Positions 15,357 to 32,236 of a stretch of DNA of 32,236 bases are shown here, one piece after another. The stretch lies in assembly GCA_010093815.1 (NCBI GenBank), contig ML996571.1; one strand, 5' to 3'. Numbering within the stretch: the first letter of the stretch is position 1; each line of letters begins with the position of its first letter. Source of the stretch: Pseudovirgaria hyperparasitica. Its lineage: Eukaryota. Below the pieces are notes generated by a model. That model saw nothing but the letters and a program-made list of their open reading frames with translations, was not told where the DNA came from and ran no database searches. A program made the position numbers and the translations under genes.

Positions 15357-16149
15357 GATGACCAGCGACCGGCCGCAAAGTAACCATTCGAAGTCAGTGA
15401 TGTCTTTGGCGGCAGTGATAGACACTCACTTACTACCTAGTGATGTACGAGTAAGAAATGCAAAGTCTGACCGGATAATTGATGTCGGACTAGACCGAAG
15501 TGGGACCGACCAGTTAAAGCGAGGGCGCGTGCGCCGTTTCAAGATATCGTTCAGCACGAAAGGGGCTAATACGTGCTATAGACCACCTTTCAAGCGGGTA
15601 CCGTTCAACGCGAGGTAAAAAGTAGCAACTCTGTTGATTGATCCAGAATCTAGATGCTGATATTCAGCTTATAACCGGGTCGATTCGAAGGCAGCTAGGA
15701 TTGTCGGATCAGCTATTCTGCCAGACTATTCTGGGATGGAGGTTCCGAGTTACAAATTGTTTTTTAATTCAAACGGAACGTGAAGCGCAGATGCCAAGTA
15801 AATAAAGCCACAAGAATAATAGCCCAGTCGGCCTGTGACCTGTGACTAGGGGGGAGGGGGGCTCTAGTCAGTGAATGCTTGCGAGCCCCCTGGTGGAGAG
15901 GGTCGAATTCCAGTCCAGCCAGGACTGTTTTGACAGCCTGCCACAATTCCATTCCATCGCCTACCTACTTGATGGTCCATGCAACATCCGATGCAAGCAC
16001 GCTATTACCGCGCGAACGACAGAATCCAAACCGTGAATACTCTTGCTGCGGAGCGATGCGGCAAGAATATTGAATGCTCGCTCTGACGCTGCCACTGTGC
16101 CTGTTCCCGTCCGGGTGCCTGTGCGTTGGTACAACATCACACTTTTTAG

Positions 16150-16181
<32 letters not shown>

Positions 16182-16366
16182 CCTGTCCTCATCCGCACTA
16201 CCTTTGCCTACATCAGCCCATATACAGAACATCGTTCCTCCAACCTCTATCTTGCAACCGTAAATCCTTGCATTCTCTCGGGGTCCCAGCAATATCAGTC
16301 TTTTCCATACCTTTCGCCATATTCTCTACGGCCGATAGCCTCAAGAATTTCCTGGTCGTCCTATTA
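15357..16366. promoter_or_regulatory. Divergent sph3/uge3 promoter region (~1 kb)
   Basis: Lies between the two start codons of head-to-head genes; contains a (TA)15 tract followed by a pyrimidine-rich leader toward uge3. Confidence 0.7.
16151..16180. repeat. (TA)15 microsatellite
   Basis: Perfect 30-bp TA run read directly. Confidence 0.97.
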
Positions 16367-17737
16367 ATGGCTACCTACACCTTGTCCGGTGCATCGTCTC
16401 CGGCTCGATCGCTATCCTCTTTGTCCATTTCCAGTGACGGAGACGTCGGCACACCAGATACTCAACGGTCTGTGATTTTTGATGAAGACGACGCGATCAC
16501 TGACCCTCTCGATGTCGAGACTGATAACCGGAATTATATTTTGGTCGTTGGAGGACTTGGATACATAGGATCCCATACCACCCTCGAGCTTCTCAAGGCC
16601 AACTATAACGTCATCGTAGTCGACGACTTGAGCAACTCATATCGCGATGTACTGGACCGGGTTTCACATTTGGCTTCTGTCCACTTCAAGGCCTGCGGGT
16701 TACCAATGCCAGCACTCAGATTTCACAATTCCGACTACCGCGCTCCGACAATGCGTGCTCTTCTCTCGAGTTATGGATCGTATATGGTAGCCGATAACTC
16801 TAGCGGAGAGCAGACATTGAAGCAGGTGTCAAGAATCACTGGCGTTATCCACTTCGCAGCTTTCAAATCCGTCGAGGAGAGTATCCAGAAGCCCCTGGCG
16901 TATTACATGAACAATGTGTGCGGCATGGTTGACTTCCTTGCTCTTCTACAGGAGTTCGGTATCCAAAACTTCGTCTTTTCCTCTTCAGCAACTGTGTACG
17001 GCGAGGCCGCAAATAGGGGAGTACCGCTAAAGGAAGAGCACATGGTCTTGCATACCGAAACCTATCTCAACGACTCCGGTTTCGAACAGACTCAAAGCCC
17101 CGGGTCCATGGGGTTGACTTCGCCTTACGGACGGTCCAAGTATATGTGCGAAGCAATCCTGGCAGATATTGCCAAAGCTGATCCTTCGTGGAAAATCACA
17201 GCTCTGCGATATTTCAACCCTGTTGGGTGTCACAGCTCCGGGCTTCTGGGCGAAGACCCACGACAAAAGCCAACCAATTTGATTCCAGTCGTAGCAACTG
17301 TTCTTACTGGTCAGAGACCCGTTCTGAGCGTCTTTGGAACTGACTGGGAGACCTCAGACGGTACTGCTGTTCGGGACTTCATCCACGTGCAAGACCTCGC
17401 ACGAGGGCACATCGCCGCATTGGCCGCTTCTGCGAATGGTGTAGTGAAAGAACCATACAGAGCCTACAACCTGGGAACAGGACATGGCCACAGCGTCCGA
17501 GAGGTTGTTGCTAGCCTTGAGAACGCATCCAGTCGACATATTCCCGTGCAAGAAGTTGGCCGCCGGGCGGGTGACGTTGGCTCATGTGTTGCTCGAGTTG
17601 ACAGAGCTGAGCGTGAGCTCAGCTGGAAGGCCGAAAAGACTCTTGCGGACTGTGCGGTCGATGTCTGGAACTTCACAAAGGGTCGTTGTGAGAAGCCGGT
17701 TATCCTACGGACGGATTCCGGCATCGCGATGAAATAA
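16367..17737 (+). CDS. uge3: UDP-glucose/UDP-GlcNAc 4-epimerase Uge3, 456 aa, intronless
   Basis: First ATG of ORF 16043-17737 is at 16367. Rossmann GGLGYIG, HFAAFKSVEES, FSSSATVYG, YGRSK (YxxxK), LRYFNPVG, DGTAVRDFIHV, RRAGDVGSC; Ser/Asp-rich N-terminal extension; cluster context. Confidence 0.94.
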   Translation: MATYTLSGASSPARSLSSLSISSDGDVGTPDTQRSVIFDEDDAITDPLDVETDNRNYILVVGGLGYIGSHTTLELLKANYNVIVVDDLSNSYRDVLDRVSHLASVHFKACGLPMPALRFHNSDYRAPTMRALLSSYGSYMVADNSSGEQTLKQVSRITGVIHFAAFKSVEESIQKPLAYYMNNVCGMVDFLALLQEFGIQNFVFSSSATVYGEAANRGVPLKEEHMVLHTETYLNDSGFEQTQSPGSMGLTSPYGRSKYMCEAILADIAKADPSWKITALRYFNPVGCHSSGLLGEDPRQKPTNLIPVVATVLTGQRPVLSVFGTDWETSDGTAVRDFIHVQDLARGHIAALAASANGVVKEPYRAYNLGTGHGHSVREVVASLENASSRHIPVQEVGRRAGDVGSCVARVDRAERELSWKAEKTLADCAVDVWNFTKGRCEKPVILRTDSGIAMK

Positions 17738-19152: not shown

Positions 19153-21366
19153 ATGGACACCGACCTCTCCACTCAGAACGATGAGATCGTCTTCAGTTCT
19201 ACCGCTTCGTGGTCCTGGGATGGAAACAATGACGAGCACGATTCTTTGTCAAACAACGGGCTCGCAAACCAATATCTACCTGATGGGCAGTCGTCGAAGA
19301 CCAGGAATAGCGGCCCTAGTCCACCGGCGGCCAATAGGGCTTCCGTATCAGTGGCTTGTGTTTCTTGCCGAAGCCGCCATCTAAAATGTGATGGTATGTA
19401 GGACCGAATTGTGAGAGAAATAATGTATCTAATCTATTCCCAGGTGGAAGCAGATGCTCTCGATGCAAAGCAGATGGAACCGAATGTTCATATGTGAAAT
19501 CTCGCCGTGGTTGGAAAGGCCCGCGGCGATCCAGGCTACAACATCAACCGAACAACACTGGTGAGTAGGGCAGGCCTAGGGAACGCTCTGTTCTCCCAGT
19601 CGTCTACACTGCATTGCCGTAGGTTCCCTGACTTTTATCTTTATGTAGGTCTTGTGTCGCCGAATCCTTCGATCTCTAGGCAACTGCCTGCAGCTAGCGA
19701 ATATGCTCTTGTGGCTTCACCCTCCTCAACTCTTCTGGGCATCACAGCATTGTCAGGTAGGGAGCTTGTCTCTGTGAATGGCCTCAGAACATCTGAATCT
19801 CCCTCAACTTCGGAACAAGTCATTCCATTCTGCCACCACAAGGCCACTTTGGATGAGCATTTATCGCGGCCGGCCATCAAGCAGTACTACGACACCTTCG
19901 CTCCAGCTCATCCAATTTTACCACATCGGGAGCTGACAGCCGAGCTCATACAGAGACATGGGCTGAAACACTTGGAGGTAGCAATGCAATACGTTGCTTG
20001 TCGTTACGTGTTTCCATCTGAGAGCGAAAAGCTCAAGAACGAGCTAGGACTGTTGTTCTCCAATGGAGATCCACCTCGTGATGGCTTCACGGTGCAAACT
20101 CTTATTTTATTTGCAATAGGCTTGCATGCCAACGATGAGCCGGCTCGTGCACTGGAGGCGCTGGACATGGCGATCTCAATTGCGATAGAAATTGAGATGA
20201 ACTACGCTCGATTTTCGACAAGCGCAGGTGATGGGGACAGGGTTCTCGAGGAGAGTTGGAGGAGGACCTGGTGGCAACTCTTCGTTCTAGATGCATTCTT
20301 TGCTGGAATCAACAAGAAATCAGACTTCAGATTGCGAATCGTCGAGACGGATGTGCCGTTGCCATGCGAGGAGAAAGAGTTTACTTCTTGCGTGAGTAGA
20401 CTTTCTCCACTCTGGATCTGTCCATACCCCCAACACGTCTGTCGTTTTCCTAAGTGTCCGTCAATTCGATTATATGTGATAGCTGCCACTATACCAGACG
20501 CCATGCGACTTGGATTTTATGGATGTCCAGGCGAACCAATACTGACTGTAATACCAGCGTATACCTCCAGGCCATACCGTGGACTCATTTGAGTCTGACA
20601 TTTTTTCGAATACCGACAAATGCTTCTCTTCCTTCGCCTACATGGTTCACGCAGCAAAGATCCTTGGTTCTGTACTACAGATCGATCCAAGCGGCGCAAC
20701 AGACAAAGTAGTGAATCAAGTTGACACTGCGCTTTCTGCATGGATGCTCAATCTTCCATGCTCTAAACGAGAGGTAATGTCCAGAAGTGAAACTGTGGAT
20801 GAGGTACTCCTCCAGGCTCAGATGATTATTGCCTGGTGAGCAAGCCCTAGCCCCTAGCCTTCACTACACCAGCACTGACACATGATAGCGCAAACATAAT
20901 GCTTCACCGTCCCCGTTCCGCCCTCGAAGTCGACCCGGTCGGCGATATTAAAACATGTGTAACTCCTGGTGAGTTTGTGGGCACGACACAAGCACGGGAG
21001 GTCCACACCGTGAAGGCCATAAAGGCGGCCGAAGACATATCCGACTTGATGAAACTGCCTTCACCACTGAACAAACGTTCTCCTTTCTTCACTTGTGCTG
21101 TCGTCATGGCGTCGGTAGTCCACCTCTCGTACTGGTCCTTCATAGTACCGGATGGTGAAGATCTGCCTATCAAAGATCTGATTCGACTAGACACAGGAGC
21201 CTTACGACACCTCTCTGAAATATGGCCGATAGCTGGTACCTGTCTTGGTCAGGTGAAGGGAGTTGCTCAAGAGATGTTTGCCTCGAAGAAAGCTATCAGT
21301 TTGCATACCTGGAAGAACATGCACGGCGAATTCCAGCATATGATAGATGAGACTGTCAGCAGGTAA
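19153..21366 (+). CDS. Zn(II)2Cys6 transcription factor with fungal middle-homology region, ~618 aa; exons 19153-19393, 19444-19560, 19649-20391, 20558-20835, 20889-21366
   Basis: Spliced CVSCRSRHLKCDGGSRCSRCKADGTECSYVKSRRG fits C-x2-C-x6-C-x5-C-x2-C-x6-C. MHR motifs YYDTFAPAHPILP, LEESWRRTWWQLFVLD, VPLPCEE, LHRPRS. Four GT-AG introns keep the frame (1857 nt total). Confidence 0.9.
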
Positions 21367-23111: not shown

Positions 23112-25679
23112 TTGCTCATGACCAGAGACATATCAGGTTCGCTCTTCATCAAAGAATAGACTCGTTTACTTCGGAATAGCTACCACAGTTGATATTGCAT
23201 CTCTTACTCTGAGGATCACTCACTGCGATGTAAAGCTTGTCACCCAGACCTCACTTTGTACTCAAGTTGTCGTCAGCATTCCTATCTCACTCAGTCGCTC
23301 CCCAGGTGTACAATATAGAACTGGACTTTACGGCATTTGAACCATTACCCACACAATGAATGGCCTTCTGGTGACAGGAGGCAAAAATAAGGCTACTTGG
23401 TGTACATCTCTGTACACCCAGGTATAAATGAGAACGAGCCGCCTCTTCCCGCCACTCATGTGGCTCAAGTGCCTGCGAGAAGTAGAGATTCTTCGGGCCA
23501 AGGTAACGGTCCAGGCGGCGGGTAAATTTTAGGGGGGCCCTACTCTTAGCCGCGCGCTATTACGTAACTCTATATAAGATAGCTACTAGAAGAATAGGGG
23601 GAATTTCTCGGTTCTACTAAAATATAGAGTTAATAAACTTATAATATATAACTAGGGTCTAGTACTAGAAAAGATAACTAACCTTATAAACTTAGTAATA
23701 GTAGTATATATAGCTATACTTATTAGTAAAACCGTGATAAACGTAGAGAGTAATACTATACCTATATTCTATTCTAGAACTATTACCCTACCTATAAACG
23801 ATAGTCTACCCTCTATTAGAAATTATATAGTAGTAGTATTAAAGAAGCTTTAAAACTATAAAGTAATAGTTCTAGTAATAGTTCTAGTAATAGTCCTATA
23901 GTCTCTATATATATTTATAGGCGTGCCGTAGGCCAATTTTTTTTTTAGATATATATATAATATTATTTTAGAAATCTTAAGATTCATAGAGAGAAATATT
24001 AGAATTATTACTTAAGTATATACTTATCTATAGTCTAAATTATATAAAATAGAGAAGAAAGAAAGGATAATTTAAGAGATAGATAAATAGTTATAATAGT
24101 AATTTAAATATTATTATATATATATAGATTAAGATATACTTCTACCTAGGTATACTCTAGAAGTAGATATTATATTTAATTTCTAGTTATTATTAGGAAG
24201 ATTATATAGTTTTCTTAGAAAGAACGGTACTTTTAGAGATATAAACTTAACCTATTAATTTAGAAACCTTAAGAATAATCGTTAATTAAGTTAGAATTAA
24301 TACTTAGATATATAGTATATATTCTAAGGAACTAGTATACTATTTAGCTTCATGTATTTACTAGTAATACTTTAGAGTATTCTTAGTATTAATAATAGTC
24401 TTAAAGATCTAGATAGATATTATTATATCTAAAATATTAAGGATAGTTATATAATAGGTTAGATTTACTACTTAAGTATATATAATCTATAGTCTAGATT
24501 ATATATAAAAGAGAGTAAAGGAAAAAGAAAGATTTATAAGAGATAGATAAAAGAATATAATAGTAATTCTATTAATATTATATATATATATTAATATACT
24601 TTCTAACTAGTTGTCCTAAGGGAGTGGCGTTTCCTTTAGTTTTTAGTATTTACTAGTAATATTATAGGATCTTTTTATAATTACCGACTTTAAACTCTTT
24701 CTATATAAGAATATCTCGTTAAACCTAGGTATTTAACTAGTATATACTACTCTTACCTCCGCTATATCTTTATTATTATACTTATATTAAATTTTCCTTA
24801 CTTTATTAAGAGATTTAATCTAGTTTATTAGTCTTTCTAAACTATATTTATCTAATATTATAAAGTCTTAGAGGAATAAGGTATTATTTTTATAGAGTAT
24901 ATAGATAGCTATTATAGTCTATTTAGTTAAATAATTAGTATACTTCTAGTAGAAAAAACGAGTTCTAATATACCTTCTATTTAGAGTATAACTTCTTAAA
25001 TACCTCCTATATCTATAGGTTAATAGAATTATATAGCTATATCTAGTACTTTAGTAGTACTAGGACATCTTTTAGAAAGACTAAGGTTCTATAGTACTAG
25101 TCCTATATAAGTTAAGGAAGATCTAAGCTATACGCTCGTGCTATATCTACTAGCTATACTATATTAGTATTAGTAAATTAAATTATCTTCCCTTTTATTA
25201 TAATTTTACGGCTAATACCCTTATTCTCTTATGAATCTTAGGGTATAGCTATCTAAGACTATATTACTAAGTCGTTAATAAAAGACGTAATATTATCTAC
25301 TATATTCTACTTCTATCTTTATTTTAGTCTAGCTATAAGACTTATAATCTATTATACTACTTATTATTAAAACCGATTTACTTATATTAGATTATTAATA
25401 TTTATATTAATCTAGAAAGAATATTACTTAGATATAGTAACCTCCATGTAAAGGAGTAATAGTAGTTACTAAATTTATTAAGGATTCTAGGTTTATACTA
25501 AGGTAGCTTTGGTTTAACCGAAGCCTAAGGGTTTATTAACATTAGGAAAGATACGGCGCTCCTAAGTACTTCTAAGTACTCTCTAAGTATTCTTTTATCC
25601 TATTATATTTATTAGGTAGATCTACTTACTATCTATTCTAACGGAACGGCTTTATATAATTTATACTAAGTATTCCGCT

Positions 25680-25830
25680 TATATTAAACGTCCCGTTTAT
25701 TCTAAACGTACTAGTTATACTAAACGTCCCGTTTATACTAAACGTACTAGTTATACTAAACGTCCCGTTAGTACTAAACGTACTAGTTATACTAAACGTC
25801 CCGTTTATACTAAACGTACCGTTTATACTA
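25680..25830. repeat. 18-bp tandem repeat (~8 units), mostly alternating TATACTAAACGTCCCGTT / TATACTAAACGTACTAGT
   Basis: Read directly; the alternation gives a 36-bp higher-order period. Confidence 0.9.
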
Positions 25831-25942
25831 ACGGAATAATTAGTACTAGTTATTTTCTTAATACTAATTAGCTTACTAGTACTACTTATTTACTATATAC
25901 TAATAACTCTTATAGAATAAATAGTATCTAGTATTTTAGCTT

Positions 25943-26048
25943 CTCTATCTACTCTATCTACTCTATCTACTCTATCTACTCTATNNNNNNNNNNCTCTAT
26001 CTACTCTATCTACTCTATCTACTCTATCTACTCTATATACTCTATCTA
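25943..26048. repeat. 9-bp tandem repeat CTCTATCTA spanning an assembly gap (N10, 25985-25994)
   Basis: Read directly; true copy number unknown because of the gap. Confidence 0.92.
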
Positions 26049-26244
26049 TTTTAATAGAACTCTCCTTTCTAAAGTAATATCTTTATCTAAAGTATCTCTA
26101 TAACTCTATATATCTTATTATTCTAAATTATATCTTTAGTATATTTAATTATAGTCTTTAAATTTAATACTAGAAAGATAATATATAATAGAGAGTAGAG
26201 GTTTAAAATTAATTAGACTAGGAACTTAAATTAAATGGTACTAT

Positions 26245-26406
26245 TGTAAGAATAGGGTTATTAGATAGTAGTATAGTTAGATAGAACAATAGGGTGTATT
26301 CTATTATAGAATAAATTACTACTGAACCCTTTCGGTAGGAATCTAAGAGTATATATATAAAGGGACGCCGATCTATCTAGTACATAACTATTTACCGCCC
26401 TTTACA
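26245..26406 (-). repeat. 3' LTR (162 bp) of Ty3/Gypsy element
   Basis: TGTAA...TTACA termini and internal TATA-like tract. On the minus strand it is preceded by purine-rich GAGTTAGAAGATAA (RIPped PPT candidate). Flanking ACTAT (26240-26244) is the candidate TSD. The 5' LTR is outside the window. Confidence 0.7.
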
Positions 26407-26958
26407 TTATCTTCTAACTCTATTAGCTAAGGTATATATAGATCGGGTTCTACCTAAGGCTAAGTTCTAATAATTATCCCTTCCCTCTAGAAAGCTACCC
26501 TTAGCGACCTAGATTATTATCTATCTCTATATCCCTATTCTAAGTCTTATAAGACCTTAGTTATTCTCTACGCTTCGTCTTAGATACTTACTAATATTTA
26601 CTAATCTAAGATTTATATAAGCGTTTTCCTAACAAACTAAATTTTATCTATCTTAACTTCTTATATAGGTAAGATTACCTAATTAGGCCTAGCGTATCAC
26701 GTAATATAATTAGATAAGCCCGGGTACTACCTATATTAAAATCTTTTCTTAGAAATATTCCTTTCTTTAAAAAACTTCTTAACTCTTTATAGAGTTTTTT
26801 AGATTATTAGGTATATCACCCGATTCTTATAGATATAGATTTATATAGATTTACTATAATTTAGTACGATTTACGTAATTTACTAATTTTTATACTATCC
26901 TTAGCTAGTAATAATATAATTCGTAATAATCTATATAAATTAGTAATAATTATAATAT

Positions 26959-27938
26959 AGTTTCCTAAAATCTCGACGCTCTAAAGTAATCGGTATAGAA
27001 ATAGGCGCCTTTAAATAATCTCTATCTTATATATATTACTAATATATTAAAAGCTATTAATCTACCCTAACCTAGGCCGGGCTCTAATAATCTAGCTATA
27101 TATTATTATAGTTATCGCTTTCCATCATATATTACTCACAGTAGTACTAAATCTATAATATACAGTACTTACATAACTAAGAAGCGTTATTACTTATAGA
27201 TATTTAAGTAAGTTCGAAGAACTTTACGTAGATTTACTTATATTAGTATAGATTACTACTAGGCCTCTAGTAACCCCTACTAATAAGAAGCGTGGTACTA
27301 CCAATCGTAACACCTTAGAGAAGGCTTTCTATAAGCTATATACCTAAGGCAAGGGTTACACCTAGGAGTACGATTCTAATAAGATCCGTAAGGATTTATT
27401 AGAATCTACTATAGCTATTATTACCGCGATTACTAGGTAATATCGTTTTTCTTAAATCGTTATAGATTCTTACTAATATATATTAATCTCTATAATAGTA
27501 CTAAAATCTCTACTACTTCGGACTTCTTTCTATATACCGGTAATATTAGAATTCCTAGAAAAGGTTCTAGTAAAAAGGCTAAGGTTCCTTCCTCGCGCGT
27601 ACTAAAGAGCTATAAATTTAGGGAAGATAGCTCTAATCTAGAAGTTTCTATACTAAAGGTATATGGTTCTATACCGATTATTAAATCTTTTCGCTAATTT
27701 ATATAATTCTTAGCATACCCGCGCCGGTCCATCCCTCTCCATCCCAGGTCCCGCCGCTCTATAGGTTTCTATAGAGGAGTTTATAGCTATAAGGCGCGCT
27801 ATATAGAATTTACAGCATCAGAACGAAAGGCTAGAGACTTATATTATAAAGCTCTATACTATGCTAAATAAGAACTAGCGGAAGGAATTAGATATAACCA
27901 TCGCGGTAATTAGTACTTCTACTTCTACTCTAACTTAA
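26959..27938 (+). pseudogene. Relic spliced gene antisense to gag-pol (~250 codons; putative Cys cluster + C-terminal coiled coil)
   Basis: Candidate GT-AG introns 26993-27053, 27208-27262, 27437-27498, 27659-27713 (55-62 bp) join five exons in one frame. Exon 27499-27658 is stop-free and the others contain only TAA/TAG. Start codon not identified. Confidence 0.6.
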
Positions 27939-28293
27939 TCGGTTTAGATCTATACTAATTAGTACTAATATATCTCTTTTATCTAGCGTTTTTAGTTTTT
28001 CAGTTTTAATTTTAAAGCGATCTTACTTCTTCTAGATAGATTAGTATAAGTTTATATAGATCTATATAGATCTTTATATTTTCTTTTAGCTTTCTTAATT
28101 TTATCTTTCTTTAATAATAACTTCTTTAATCTCTTTAGTAATCTATACCAATCTATACCAATCGGCACCGACTTTCAATGTCCATTTCTCTTAGTAAATC
28201 ATTTTTCTAAGTCTCTTTTTTAGTTAAATTTTTAAAGTTCTAAGTTCAAACTTTCTAAGGAAGTTCCTTAATTCCTTAGAATGTTTTAAAGAT

Positions 28294-31200
28294 CTATATC
28301 TCTTTTACCTTCTTCCTTTTAGGCGGCCGTTCTTAGCGCTAAACTATACTAAAAAATATCGAATTGCCGTACTTTAGTATAATTCTCTATAATTCCGCGG
28401 CTTCCTTTACTAATCGCTACTTATATACTAATATCGCTACTTTACTAATGTTTATTATAGGTTCCTAAGTATCTTTATTAGGATTATATCCTTTCTAATA
28501 AATTTTATATAGCTATATACTATCTTCGGCGCGTTACTAGCTAAGTATCTACTTAACTTCGTAGATATCTATACCTTCTTACGTAACTACTTTATATAGT
28601 ATCTATTTAGAATAATCCAGTAATAATAAGGCATAAAATGGCTCGAGAAGCGTAATATAGAATATATTATATATCTTTAACGTAGGAGGGAGTTATAACT
28701 CGTACGCCTGGTTATTAATTACACGAGTAATCTTATATAGACCTATTATTATATAGTTAAGCTTCTTCTTTAGCCTAATACTACGAATATTCTTACTATT
28801 TAGTAAAACTTTATCCCTAACATTAAAGATCATAGGTTTTCTACCCTTGTTATGGTGCGATTTACTATAATTCATAGTATCTTATAGTAACTTTATAACG
28901 CTTCTTTACGTTTAGAATAGTTCTATAGTAATTTCTATTACTTTAATGTTAGGTCGTTCTACTTTAAACTAAGTTCCTAAGAACTATATATTATGGTTCT
29001 AACCGAAGTTTACTTCGAACGGACTTACGTAGGTTAACACATATCAGCTATTATTATACGCGAATTCCGCGATATAGACTAACCTTACCTAGTTATTCTA
29101 CTTATAGTTATAATATACGCGTAAATACGCCTCGACTATCTAATTCTACCGCTCTATCTATCTATCTATTTATAGGTAGAACGTAGTACTAAGTTTCCGC
29201 TTAATTCCTAGTATATAGTAGAAATCCTTCTAAAATTTAGACGTTATCTATAGATCTCTATCCGAAACTATACCATTTAGTATACCGTGGAGCCGGACTA
29301 CGTCACGGAGTAGTATATCTATAAGATCCGGTGCTTAGATCGTCTTTCTTATAGAGATATAGTATAATATCTTCGTAAATCTATCTAGAACTATAAGTAA
29401 ACTATTATAAATATGCCTAGAATACTTACTTAGGGGCAGATCTATAATAAAATCTATCAATAATTCCTTCTATACCTTCTTTAGCATAGGTAATAGCCTT
29501 AATTCGCTATATAGTAAGTGTCTATATACTTTCGTATACTGGTAAACGTTATACGTTTTTACGTAGTCTTTTATATATTTATAAAGACCCGGCTAGTCGT
29601 ACGTCCTTCGGATTAAATCGACCGTTCTTATAATACTAAAGTACCCTACTAACGCGTAATCGTGCTATTCCCTTAAAATATTAATTTATAAGCCGCCTTC
29701 CGGCACGTAGAGTCGGCCTTAGAAGTAGATNNNNNNNNNNACTAACTATCTATGTTATTCTATAACGATTTCTTATAATCTTCACGCCGCGATAGAGGAT
29801 TAGCTTTATTCTCTCTTCTAGCTTTATATAAGATTTTAAAGTTAAATATTAACATCTACTTAGCCTAACGTACTTATTAGTAATTAAGAACCTTAGTTAA
29901 TATAAAGTAACGTAGATTTATATAATCTAATAATAATTCGATCTAATATACGGAGCCTTCTAAATAATATTACTATTACTTAAAACTCTTAACGATTACG
30001 AGTAGTTCCTAGTCATGCGTGTTATAACGCGTCTCTATATTAGCTATTTTACGGGAAAAGAAAGCGACCGGGTACCATTATACCTTATCTTTTATATCTT
30101 TATATAGTTAACTAATAATTCTAGTAATTATAAATTCTAACGCATTAGTTTTAACCTAAATATACTTCTTAGAATTAAAATACCTAAGAATCGGCGTAGT
30201 TATAAAGTAATTCTTTAACGATCGGAACGTATCTCGCGCTTCCGGCGTTAACTATATCTCGACCGACTTAGCTTTACGCTATACTCGCCCACCTATAGAG
30301 ATTTTACCGCCATTCTCTATGAGTTTATTAAGCGGCGCCGTAATTCATAAGAAGCCTATAATGAATTTATAATAATAGTTCACGAAACCTATAAATGTTC
30401 TAATTTAATATATAGTAGTAGGTTCTAGCCATTCCATGATAGTCTTTACACGCTCCGGCTCCATTTTTAGACCGCTATATATCATAATAAAGCCGAGAAA
30501 CCTAACTTCTTATTAGTGAAACTCGCATTTAGATAATTTTACGTAGAGTTTATACTACCTTAGACGATTTAGCACCGATTTCACGTATTCTTTATAATCC
30601 TACATGCTATCGGAGTAAATTAGTATATCATCAAGATAAACTACGTAAATCACGTTAAGTAATCCTACGAGTATAGTATTAATATATCCTTAAAACGCTT
30701 CTAGCGCATTTATTAGCCTAAATGGTATAATAGTATACTTAAAATAACTATATCTAGTCCGAAATGCGGTTTTCTACTTATCTCCGTAACAAATTTAAAG
30801 CCGGTAATATATATCTCGTAAATCTAGCTTCGTAAAGTACTTTGCCTTCGTTAATTAGTATAAAGATTTACTAACTAGCGGTAATAGATAACGATTCTTC
30901 TTAGTCACCGTATTTAGTACCTAATAGTTAACGTATAGGCGTAAACTTCCGTCTTTCTTCTTCACGAAGAGAATAGATACGCCGGCCAATAACGTACTAT
31001 AATATATCTAGCCTCTTTCGAGGTATTCTTTAATATATTTATAAAGAACTTCGAGTTCTAGTCTCGAAAGTAGGTAAAGTAGACTATAAGGGATATCTAC
31101 TCCCTCTTCGAGCTTAATCTTTAGCTTATACGGCCCATAATTAGGGAGAAGTAACGCATCTCCTACCGAAAATATATCCGTATACTACGAATATACGTTA

Positions 31201-31808
31201 GGTAGCGTGTCTTCGCCCTAATTATTACTATCATCCTTATCTTTATCGATAATCGATAAGAACGCAAGATAGATTAGCGATAATCGGGTCCGCACGGCGA
31301 GGTTCTATGCCTCCTTACTAATAGTTATAACTTACTAGTATAATTTACCATAGTATTATTAGAACGTTAATGTCTCCTTCTAAAAATCAAGGATAGAGTT
31401 TAGGCGTCTAAGCTAAGGCATCCCTAGAATCATATTCTATTAGCTAATATTAGCCATAATAAATTCATTAGACATCTACTATTTTATTATCTTCGAGTCA
31501 TGAACTTCGTAATTCGTTATAGCTTTACCTAAAGTTCTAACTTTATATCTATTAACTATAATGGTTCGGCTAACTTTACCGAGATTATACGATAATCTAT
31601 ACTCCTTTACGAGAATTAATAAAATATAGTTATCTTCTATACTAGTGTCCACGAGGGCCTATATAGTTTTATTACCATTTACTATAGGTAACGATACTTT
31701 TAGTAATATTAGGTCTTTACTTGCCGGAAGGCGCTATAGCTCCTTCTAAGTATATATAATTTAGCTAAGAACGCGGTTAGGTCTTATATACTAGCCTATT
31801 CTTTTTTC
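28294..31808 (-). pseudogene. pol: pol polyprotein relic (protease, RT, RNase H, integrase, chromodomain)
   Basis: PR ALVDTS (de-RIP DTG) ~31650; RT KKDGSLRL ~30950, KTAFRT, YLDDILIYS ~30630; RH YPVAFFSRK ~30065; IN HDYALVG, DFIIDLP, VSDRD, IIGLYKI..AYEL ~28720; chromodomain YEVK*IL..YKIY*KGY..DT*EP..NI ~28450-28565. N10 gap at 29731-29740. End coordinate approximate. Confidence 0.92.
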
Positions 31809-32236
31809 GGATTCTTATAGTTAGGCGAAATATATTCTATTTCTCTATACTTATAGTAACGAAGTGCGCTATAATCCTACTATTTTACGATAGGCGTTAT
31901 ATTTAAGCCTATGCCTTATGCTTTTCCGCGTTAAGAAGTACCGCCTTAATTATTTCGGTATCCTCTTAACGCGTTTCTACCCTAATTTACGCTCTTCTAG
32001 CGCTAATCGCGGTAAGGTTACTCTTGATCGAACGTATTCGATCGACCTTATTTCTAACCCGTATAGGGTTCGTCGGTTTTACCTAGAGAGCCGCGTTCCT
32101 TAAGGATGCGGTAGTATTTATTAGCTTTCTCCTCTAATTTATATAGATAGTTAAAACTTAATAATACTATTTCTAGTCTTTCGTGGATTAACGGAAGTAG
32201 TACTTCGCGAAACTAGAATATATAAATATTTTTCTA
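31796..32236 (-). pseudogene. gag: gag C-terminal relic with CCHC zinc knuckle
   Basis: RYYKYREIEYISPNYKNPKKE* restores to C-x2-C-x4-H-x4-C when TAT/TAC codons are de-RIPped; stop at 31798-31796. Confidence 0.8.

Follow-up and report, generated by a model that had tools for sequence, protein, structure and literature searches.

Possible relic of an antisense, intron-bearing accessory gene in the family-wide region between pol and the 3' LTR of a RIP-mutated Ty3/Gypsy element from Pseudovirgaria hyperparasitica

The accessory genes of long terminal repeat (LTR) retrotransposons are poorly understood. One described type comprises antisense open reading frames (ORFs) situated between pol and the 3' LTR (aORF-3R), which the relevant passages of PMC7264820 and PMC11963269 report from maize Grande (gene23), rice RIRE2, Silene Retand and Phaseolus PvRetro13. 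In fungi, the type is represented by brtn of the element Boty, in Botrytis cinerea and Sclerotinia (PMC7264820, sections 3 and 5; PMC8365987, section 22; PMC4227169, section 6). The passages of PMC7264820 on this type assign no function to any such gene, and its section 7 gives none of the known antisense accessory proteins clear database similarity. Antisense or additional ORFs are not mentioned in "LTR Retrotransposons in Fungi" (PMC3248453), nor is brtn in the supplement text of PMC8365987, and no fungal antisense accessory gene other than brtn was found in full-text searches of the literature. Here, we analyzed a DNA stretch of 32,236 nt from Pseudovirgaria hyperparasitica (GenBank assembly GCA_010093815.1, contig ML996571.1), hereafter called the window, whose given strand is the + strand. 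On its - strand, the window carries the 3' two-thirds of an LTR retrotransposon inactivated by repeat-induced point (RIP) mutation. A preliminary description of positions 26959 to 27938 had proposed that the region between pol and the 3' LTR, hereafter the spacer, contains a four-intron gene on the opposite strand, encoding a third element protein with a Zn(II)2Cys6-like cluster and a coiled coil. We found that the spacer is a constant part of a high-copy family, and that part of its + strand has a weak coding-like signal, modestly above chance (p ~0.02 to 0.04). The chance that the spacer is the mutated relic of an antisense, intron-bearing aORF-3R accessory gene, best supported for the third to fifth of the proposed exons, is in our judgment a little below even.

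brtn was reportedly presented by Zhao et al. (2011, Virology 417:248) as an additional antisense gene of Boty-like (BcGypsy1) retrotransposons. Boty, too, is a Ty3/Gypsy element of ascomycetes. It has a chromodomain, which the window element probably shares, and additional DNA separates its pol from the 3' LTR, as in the window element; in both, an antisense gene has been proposed for this DNA. The general idea of the preliminary description therefore has a fungal precedent, as far as the passages on brtn in PMC7264820 and PMC8365987 go. Whereas brtn was reported from intact copies, every copy of the window family that was seen is RIP-mutated and has no open gene; the likeness of the two is one of description. 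The plant aORF-3R genes resemble the spacer in their position and orientation, their presence in most copies, and their lack of protein similarity and of an assigned function. However, they come from Tat/Retand elements, which are not chromoviruses and have far longer internal regions, and no sequence relation to them was found, nor was any expected. By analogy only, the gene proposed here also resembles hbz of human T-cell leukemia virus type 1 (HTLV-1), a spliced antisense accessory gene located at the 3' end of its element; hbz, however, belongs to a vertebrate retrovirus, encodes a bZIP protein, and is expressed from the 3' LTR.

The identity of the element follows from its pol. With stops read as X, Pfam detected, in - strand order, RVT_1 (E = 6.4e-22), RT_RNaseH_2/RT_RNaseH (9.9e-16 for RT_RNaseH_2), Integrase_H2C2 (7.2e-8), and SH3_Tf2-1 (1.1e-10). 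A protein search with the integrase half gave 188 relatives (best E = 1.7e-47, ~40% identity), and in tblastn against the window 120 listed relatives aligned in two different frames, over 30938-29784 and 29745-28423, respectively. Homology-supported residues end at 28423, and a basic tail continues to a stop at 28294-28296, while the window stops short of gag and the 5' LTR. The relevant features are:

29784-30938, - strand: pol, reverse transcriptase and RNase H (Pfam and tblastn of relatives)
28294-29745, - strand: C-terminal half of pol, with integrase (H2C2 at about 29682-29529), SH3_Tf2-1 (28815-28636), a probable degraded chromodomain (about 28563-28438), and the basic tail (Pfam, tblastn)
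26473-28293, no strand given: extra internal region from the pol end to the 3' LTR, RIP-mutated and family-wide (even contig depth)
26477-26488, - strand: polypurine tract AGAGGGAAGGGA, 4 nt upstream of the LTR (sequence reading)
26245-26472, - strand: 3' LTR of 228 nt (contig depth, joints, and loose ends)

Reverse transcriptase, RNase H, and integrase in this order identify the element as a Ty3/Gypsy LTR retrotransposon. It was also called a chromovirus in the preliminary description, and this part is less firm. The Pfam Chromo match at ~28563-28438 has an E-value of 0.058 and 13.8 bits, below the cut-off of 25.1, and a BLASTP alignment with one relative (P0008) stops short of the chromodomain of that protein. 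Other relatives bearing PF00385 align in tblastn as far as 28423-28447, and the element is probably a chromovirus with a degraded chromodomain, short of formal assignment owing to the low score. The 3' LTR starts with TG, read as TA in the RIPped window copy, followed by TTAGAAC, and ends with TTACA at 26245; a family contig from the public run X1 has TG (CA on the + strand) where the window copy has TA at this edge. The TG..CA ends and the preceding polypurine tract are as expected of an LTR retrotransposon.

The distance from pol to the LTR, put at ~1.9 kb in the preliminary description, measured 1.82 kb from the first stop past the basic tail and 1.95 kb from the last homology-supported residue. 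For comparison, we collected 80 related chromovirus loci from metagenome contigs, 35 to 41% identical to the window element in reverse transcriptase/RNase H. The two closest of those that wrap round one unit (L002 and L007; 39 to 41% identical, ~5.2 kb per unit) share with the window element the pol domain order and a short LTR. In both, however, pol stop, LTR, and gag follow each other within ~400 to 460 nt (the gag ORF starts 460 and 397 nt past the pol stop, LTR included), whereas in the window element the LTR ends 2055 nt past the end of pol. The segments L002:4038-5313 and L007:3230-4655 provide the baseline for a normal pol-to-LTR distance. Sense ORFs of 272 and 343 aa after pol in these two loci were considered as an extra gene and rejected, being the gag of the next unit (Retrotrans_gag, E = 6.6e-16 in L002 and 8.9e-15 in L007). 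As judged from this comparison of assembled sequences, the window family carries about 1.6 to 1.8 kb more between pol and the 3' LTR than its compact relatives.

To place the spacer within its family, contigs of four public runs were aligned to positions 26060-32236 at ≥80% identity. In run X1 alone 25451 contigs matched, so that the family must be high-copy. The summed X1 depth per bin was 170k to 381k over 26472-32236 and 533k over 26266-26471, with 285k in the bin that follows, and it dropped to 70k below 26265. Both X1 and X4 had joints at 26470, and loose ends at 26244/26245 were found in X4 and X5; together with the doubling in depth, these place the 3' LTR at 26472-26245. Over the stretch 26959-27938 the depth was 197k to 339k, compared to 170k to 359k over pol, and parts of the spacer were skipped by single X1 contigs only. 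The spacer is thus constant in the family and not a private insertion of the window copy; absence from other copies, which would have told against the preliminary description, was not what we saw. The position of an aORF-3R and its presence in most copies therefore hold for the DNA region, and not for an ORF. Single contigs connect the LTR edge at 26470 to 29063 (X4) and to 32178 (X1), and are probably deleted derivatives without the spacer and part of pol. In run X3, which is labelled as a different species, short low-depth contigs 92 to 96% identical to the window were found at 26415-26973, 27949-28162, and 28299-28503; identity this high in mutated DNA points to closely related organisms, a wrong label, or carry-over from one sample to another.

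The spacer has to be read through the RIP damage. RIP is indicated by a TpA/ApT ratio well above 0.89 and a (CpA+TpG)/(ApC+GpT) ratio well below 1.03. These indices were 1.5 to 1.64 and 0.06 to 0.25 in the AT-rich part of the window (23400-32236, 20 to 34% GC) and 1.5 and 0.23 in the spacer (26473-28293), compared to 0.69 and 1.22 in the host part (1-23400, ~50% GC, with long open frames). Among the 330 sites that differ between copies in the X1 contigs, 328 are transitions. The AT-rich repeat is RIP-mutated by both measures, as the preliminary description had supposed, and the window copy is dead under every reading of the spacer. As the only changes made by RIP are C to T and G to A, each position keeps its purine/pyrimidine (R/Y) class, and the pre-RIP sequence is still recorded in the purine content of the three codon positions.

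The proposed gene lies on the window + strand, antisense to the element. All four GT..AG introns were found where they had been placed, with lengths of 61, 55, 62, and 55 nt and a CTAAT branch motif in three, and they do join the exons in one frame; individually, however, such segments occur at chance density. The parts of the model are:

26993-27053, + strand: proposed intron 1, 61 nt, GTATAG..AAAAG, CTAAT present (sequence reading)
27056-27207, + strand: proposed exon 2, with a Tyr-rich stretch at 27104-27193; no coding-like R/Y signal
27208-27262, + strand: proposed intron 2, 55 nt, GTAAGT..ACTAG, no branch motif; the purine-phase track changes frame here
27263-27436, + strand: proposed exon 3, the strongest coding-like segment (R/Y log-likelihood ratio), with two in-frame TAA/TAG stops
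27437-27498, + strand: proposed intron 3, 62 nt, GTAATA..AATAG, CTAAT present; also readable as open frame (sequence reading)
27499-27658, + strand: proposed exon 4, inside a stop-free frame of 86 codons at 27437-27694 (log-likelihood ratio, ORF length)
27659-27713, + strand: proposed intron 4, 55 nt, GTATAT..CTTAG, CTAAT present (sequence reading)
27714-27938, + strand: proposed exon 5, ..EEFIAIRRAI*NLQHQNERLETYIIKLYTML.., with four in-frame TAA/TAG stops including the terminal one (log-likelihood ratio)

The peptide of the last exon had been read correctly. Spliced, the model runs to 249 codons with 8 in-frame stops, all RIP-type TAA/TAG; the two alternative frames contain 23 and 31. If there was a gene, it would have occupied the + strand over ~27260-27940 (exons 3 to 5), split by short fungal-type introns, and these could have come through retrotransposition unspliced, being antisense in the transcript of the element itself. 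Its translation, exact splice junctions, start codon, and any function are what we infer, and the exact four-intron model, a special case of the antisense-gene reading, is unlikely to be correct in all its parts.

Part of the evidence for the antisense-gene reading is the R/Y composition of exons 3 to 5. The purine fractions at codon positions 1/2/3 and the stop densities were as follows:

Host ORFs: 0.58/0.45/0.40; 3.8 to 4.6 stops per 100 codons after simulated RIP, 8 to 10 off-frame
Exons 3 to 5 of the model: 0.64/0.45/0.40; 2.7 stops per 100 codons
Exons 2 to 5 of the model: 0.60/0.47/0.39; 3.0 stops per 100 codons, 9 and 12 off-frame
Other open + strand frames in RIPped DNA: 0.48/0.41/0.37; 0 stops (selected as stop-free)
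pol, sense: 0.56-0.58/0.51-0.53/0.52-0.53; 6.5 to 6.8 stops per 100 codons

The purine fraction at position 1 (R1) is 0.67 and that at position 3 (R3) is 0.35 in exon 3, while exon 2 has R1/R2/R3 of 0.48/0.52/0.34 and a G1 of 0.04. The log-likelihood ratio on R/Y triplets, trained on host ORFs, was +9.5 bits for exon 3 (57 codons), +8.6 for exon 4 (53 codons), +6.2 for exon 5 (74 codons), and +1.4 for exon 2. Across 627 control windows of 55 codons, scored as the best of three frames, the mean was ~1 with a standard deviation of ~2.6 and a maximum of 9.0, which exon 3 exceeds. The R1-R3 periodicity was 0.21, compared to 0.107 ± 0.053 in shuffles (12/500 reach 0.21); some periodicity arises in shuffles as well, because the picking of open frames creates it. 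Free chaining of R/Y triplets gave a best score of 41.9 bits for the spacer + strand, whereas block shuffles gave 30.8 ± 4.8 (3/150). At each of proposed introns 2, 3, and 4, the signal shifts phase. Since RNY is self-complementary, the simple R1-R3 phase track is blind to strand; the triplet asymmetry (RYY > RRY, YRR < YYR) points to the + strand as the coding one.

The openness of the + strand is no more than suggestive. Dinucleotide and block shuffles served as controls, with a dynamic program placing four GT..AG introns freely. The best spliced + path had 4 stops, compared to 7.7 to 8.1 ± 1.8 in shuffles (4/200, and 9 to 11/300 block shuffles). The longest + strand ORF, the 86-codon frame that includes exon 4, was reached by 35 of 2000 local shuffles. 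No openness was seen in the same path test on the - strand of the spacer (184/300).

Three mutually alternative readings of the spacer have to be weighed: the antisense-gene relic, a non-coding region, and captured DNA. As a non-coding internal region, the spacer would be an extended 3' untranslated or cis-acting segment, or junk that became fixed, its open frame a chance product of TA-rich RIPped DNA and the free choice of introns and frames; we consider this to have a substantial chance, though clearly below even. Much of the data fits it and weighs against a gene. GT..AG segments of 45 to 90 nt number 129, compared to 118 in dinucleotide shuffles, and those of 50 to 70 nt with a branch motif number 8, compared to 9.8. 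With four free introns, 119 of 200 shuffles have no more than the model's 8 stops, so that the model as such is unremarkable. ORFs of 40 to 72 codons are frequent on both strands of RIPped DNA, and shuffling the whole element and scoring both strands gives an ORF of at least 86 codons in 115 of 500 cases. A truly non-coding control, the strand antisense to integrase, performs almost as well as the spacer in the path test (14 to 18/300). Flexible R/Y chains reach 25 to 37 bits in control regions, and when GT..AG junctions are required (phase-0 only) the spacer chain is not significant (39/150). The host-trained R/Y model gives no signal on pol, and it therefore detects host-like composition rather than coding as such. 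The significance values all lie at ~0.02 to 0.04, are correlated, and concern a region chosen by eye beforehand. In addition to its eight in-frame stops, the gene model has no ATG upstream on the + strand of the spacer, where the only ATGs are at 27663, 27861, 28178, and 28281.

Homology points the same way. No Pfam family was found at E ≤ 10 in six frames of the spacer, a word-based protein search with + frame F1 (27264-27938) gave no homologue, and an exhaustive phmmer search with + frame F0 (26474-28303; 610 residues, with exons 2 and 4) found none at E ≤ 0.001 among 1.84 billion representatives. The third + frame and the sense frames were covered by Pfam and by the 80 related loci, where the spacer had no match in six frames (tblastn, best E 0.76). 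No match was found in Rfam for the spacer or in a protein atlas for the 86-codon ORF, and no named Boty protein was among the 240 pol relatives listed. The protein-language-model recognition score of the 86-codon ORF was 1067, while 91% of known-family proteins reach 2300; RIP damage or read-through of an intron could also lower the score. Still, the equally RIPped pol was easily recognised (1.7e-47), so that RIP alone does not explain the silence of the spacer. Long spacers as such are, moreover, common in the related group: an automatic procedure found a candidate LTR pair in 29 of the 80 loci, and 21 of these have spacers of 0.55 to 0.96 kb. The relatives' spacers are GC-rich (51 to 62% GC in most loci) and open in all frames, with similarity on both strands. 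What a non-coding origin accounts for less well is that openness and purine periodicity in exons 3 to 5 exceed those of shuffles and come close to the profile of host genes, while the - strand of the spacer lacks openness. The retention of 1.6 to 1.8 kb of extra DNA in hundreds of copies of a compact retroelement would also suggest some use.

Alternatively, the spacer could be foreign DNA, captured or nested and fixed in the master copy, such as a transduced fragment of a host gene or a reversed piece of a transposon, with no role for the element. A captured host gene is expected in just this intron-bearing antisense orientation. The R/Y profile of exons 3 to 5 is like that of the host genes of the window and unlike that of pol, and the compact relatives lack the region, both of which would fit capture. 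However, no host or transposon protein matched (Pfam in six frames; protein searches of + frames F1 and F0), and the equal depth of spacer and pol leaves no separate high-copy source element in X1. The inverted repeats that flank parts of the region are no more than expected by chance, target-site duplications not having been looked for. The inverted repeat 26987-27013/27654-27680 (78%), considered as a sign of a nested element, was rejected as one of 11 similar chance-level pairs. For the family-wide aORFs of plants, section 6 of PMC7264820 argues against transduction. Overall, we consider capture quite improbable.

The most specific claim of the preliminary description was that exon 2 encodes a Zn(II)2Cys6 domain whose Cys codons had become Tyr by RIP, followed by a coiled coil, in an element-borne transcription regulator. 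The Tyr codons are indeed present at 27104-27193 as Y-x2-Y-x4-Y-x10-Y-x2-Y-x6-Y, a change from TGY to TAY is of the RIP type, and YRY codons make up 12 of 50 in exon 2, compared to a share of 10% among host genes and 15% among control ORFs, the difference from the latter not being significant. The canonical motif is C-x2-C-x6-C-x5-12-C-x2-C-x6-8-C, and the proposed cluster, with x4 where the motif has x6, does not fit it. After RIP, TAY may descend from TAY, CAY, or TGY, that is, from Tyr, His, or Cys. Tyr accounts for 8 to 10% of codons in all six frames of the RIPped DNA, and the loose Tyr pattern occurs 16 times in its 8.8 kb, compared to 2.1 times in shuffles, mostly within tandem repeats. 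No canonical spacing was found on the + strand of the RIPped DNA. The sole canonical match, with Tyr or Cys allowed, lies at 27307-27390 on the - (sense) strand, has three real Cys (..RCNPCLRYIAYRKPSLRC..), and includes a stop; this match shows how readily patterns of the kind form in RIPped DNA. Neither Zn_clus nor any other Pfam family was found for exon 2 at E ≤ 10, although RIP damage would weaken a true match, and exon 2 is the one exon without coding-like signal. Among the 40 best-supported of the 456 family differences, none was an A>G change in the middle position of any of the six Tyr codons. A Zn2Cys6 domain, which would again be a special case of the antisense-gene reading, is highly improbable, and the complete regulator model is very unlikely to be right; the coiled coil and the alternative anti-silencing role are conjectural. 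The broader proposal of a third protein fared better, given the long family-wide spacer, the weak + strand signal in exons 3 to 5, and the precedent of brtn.

Taken further, the antisense-gene reading would mean that a very successful chromovirus lineage of ascomycetes had acquired a multi-intron, host-like antisense gene of ~200 to 250 codons, without known relatives and present in every copy, as a second independent fungal case after brtn of Boty; it would survive only as a RIP fossil, its frame traceable by the R/Y pattern. We regard this wider scenario as rather doubtful. The gene, if real, would join the already described aORF-3R type, as a second fungal example, with introns, and would indicate that such genes arise repeatedly, adding a second protein to study. 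Because the copy is dead and the gene unproven, the immediate value is small. Of practical use is the R/Y codon pattern itself, which can guide the search for remnants of coding sequence in RIPped DNA when neither stop counts nor homology help.

Some further observations concern the rest of the window. In the host part, the open frame 16037-17737 is similar to ascomycete epimerase-family proteins. The 364-codon open frame at 19498-20592 (+ strand) has a negative R/Y score (mean -1.9 bits per 55 codons, with the model trained on the other two host ORFs), and it may be doubted that it is a real gene in that frame. Outside the LTR, the - strand of 23400-25227 contains a strong host-like R/Y codon chain of 37.0 bits, compared to 25.0 ± 3.8 in shuffles (1/150), or 23.9 compared to 16.2 (5/150) when GT..AG junctions are required; this may be what is left of a further gene or transposon. 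Assembly gaps appear as N runs at 25985-25994 and 29731-29740, the latter inside pol. The RIPped flank also contains tandem arrays at 25660-25848 and 25943-26048, with periods of 18/36 nt and 9 nt, the second of which is broken by the gap at 25985-25994.

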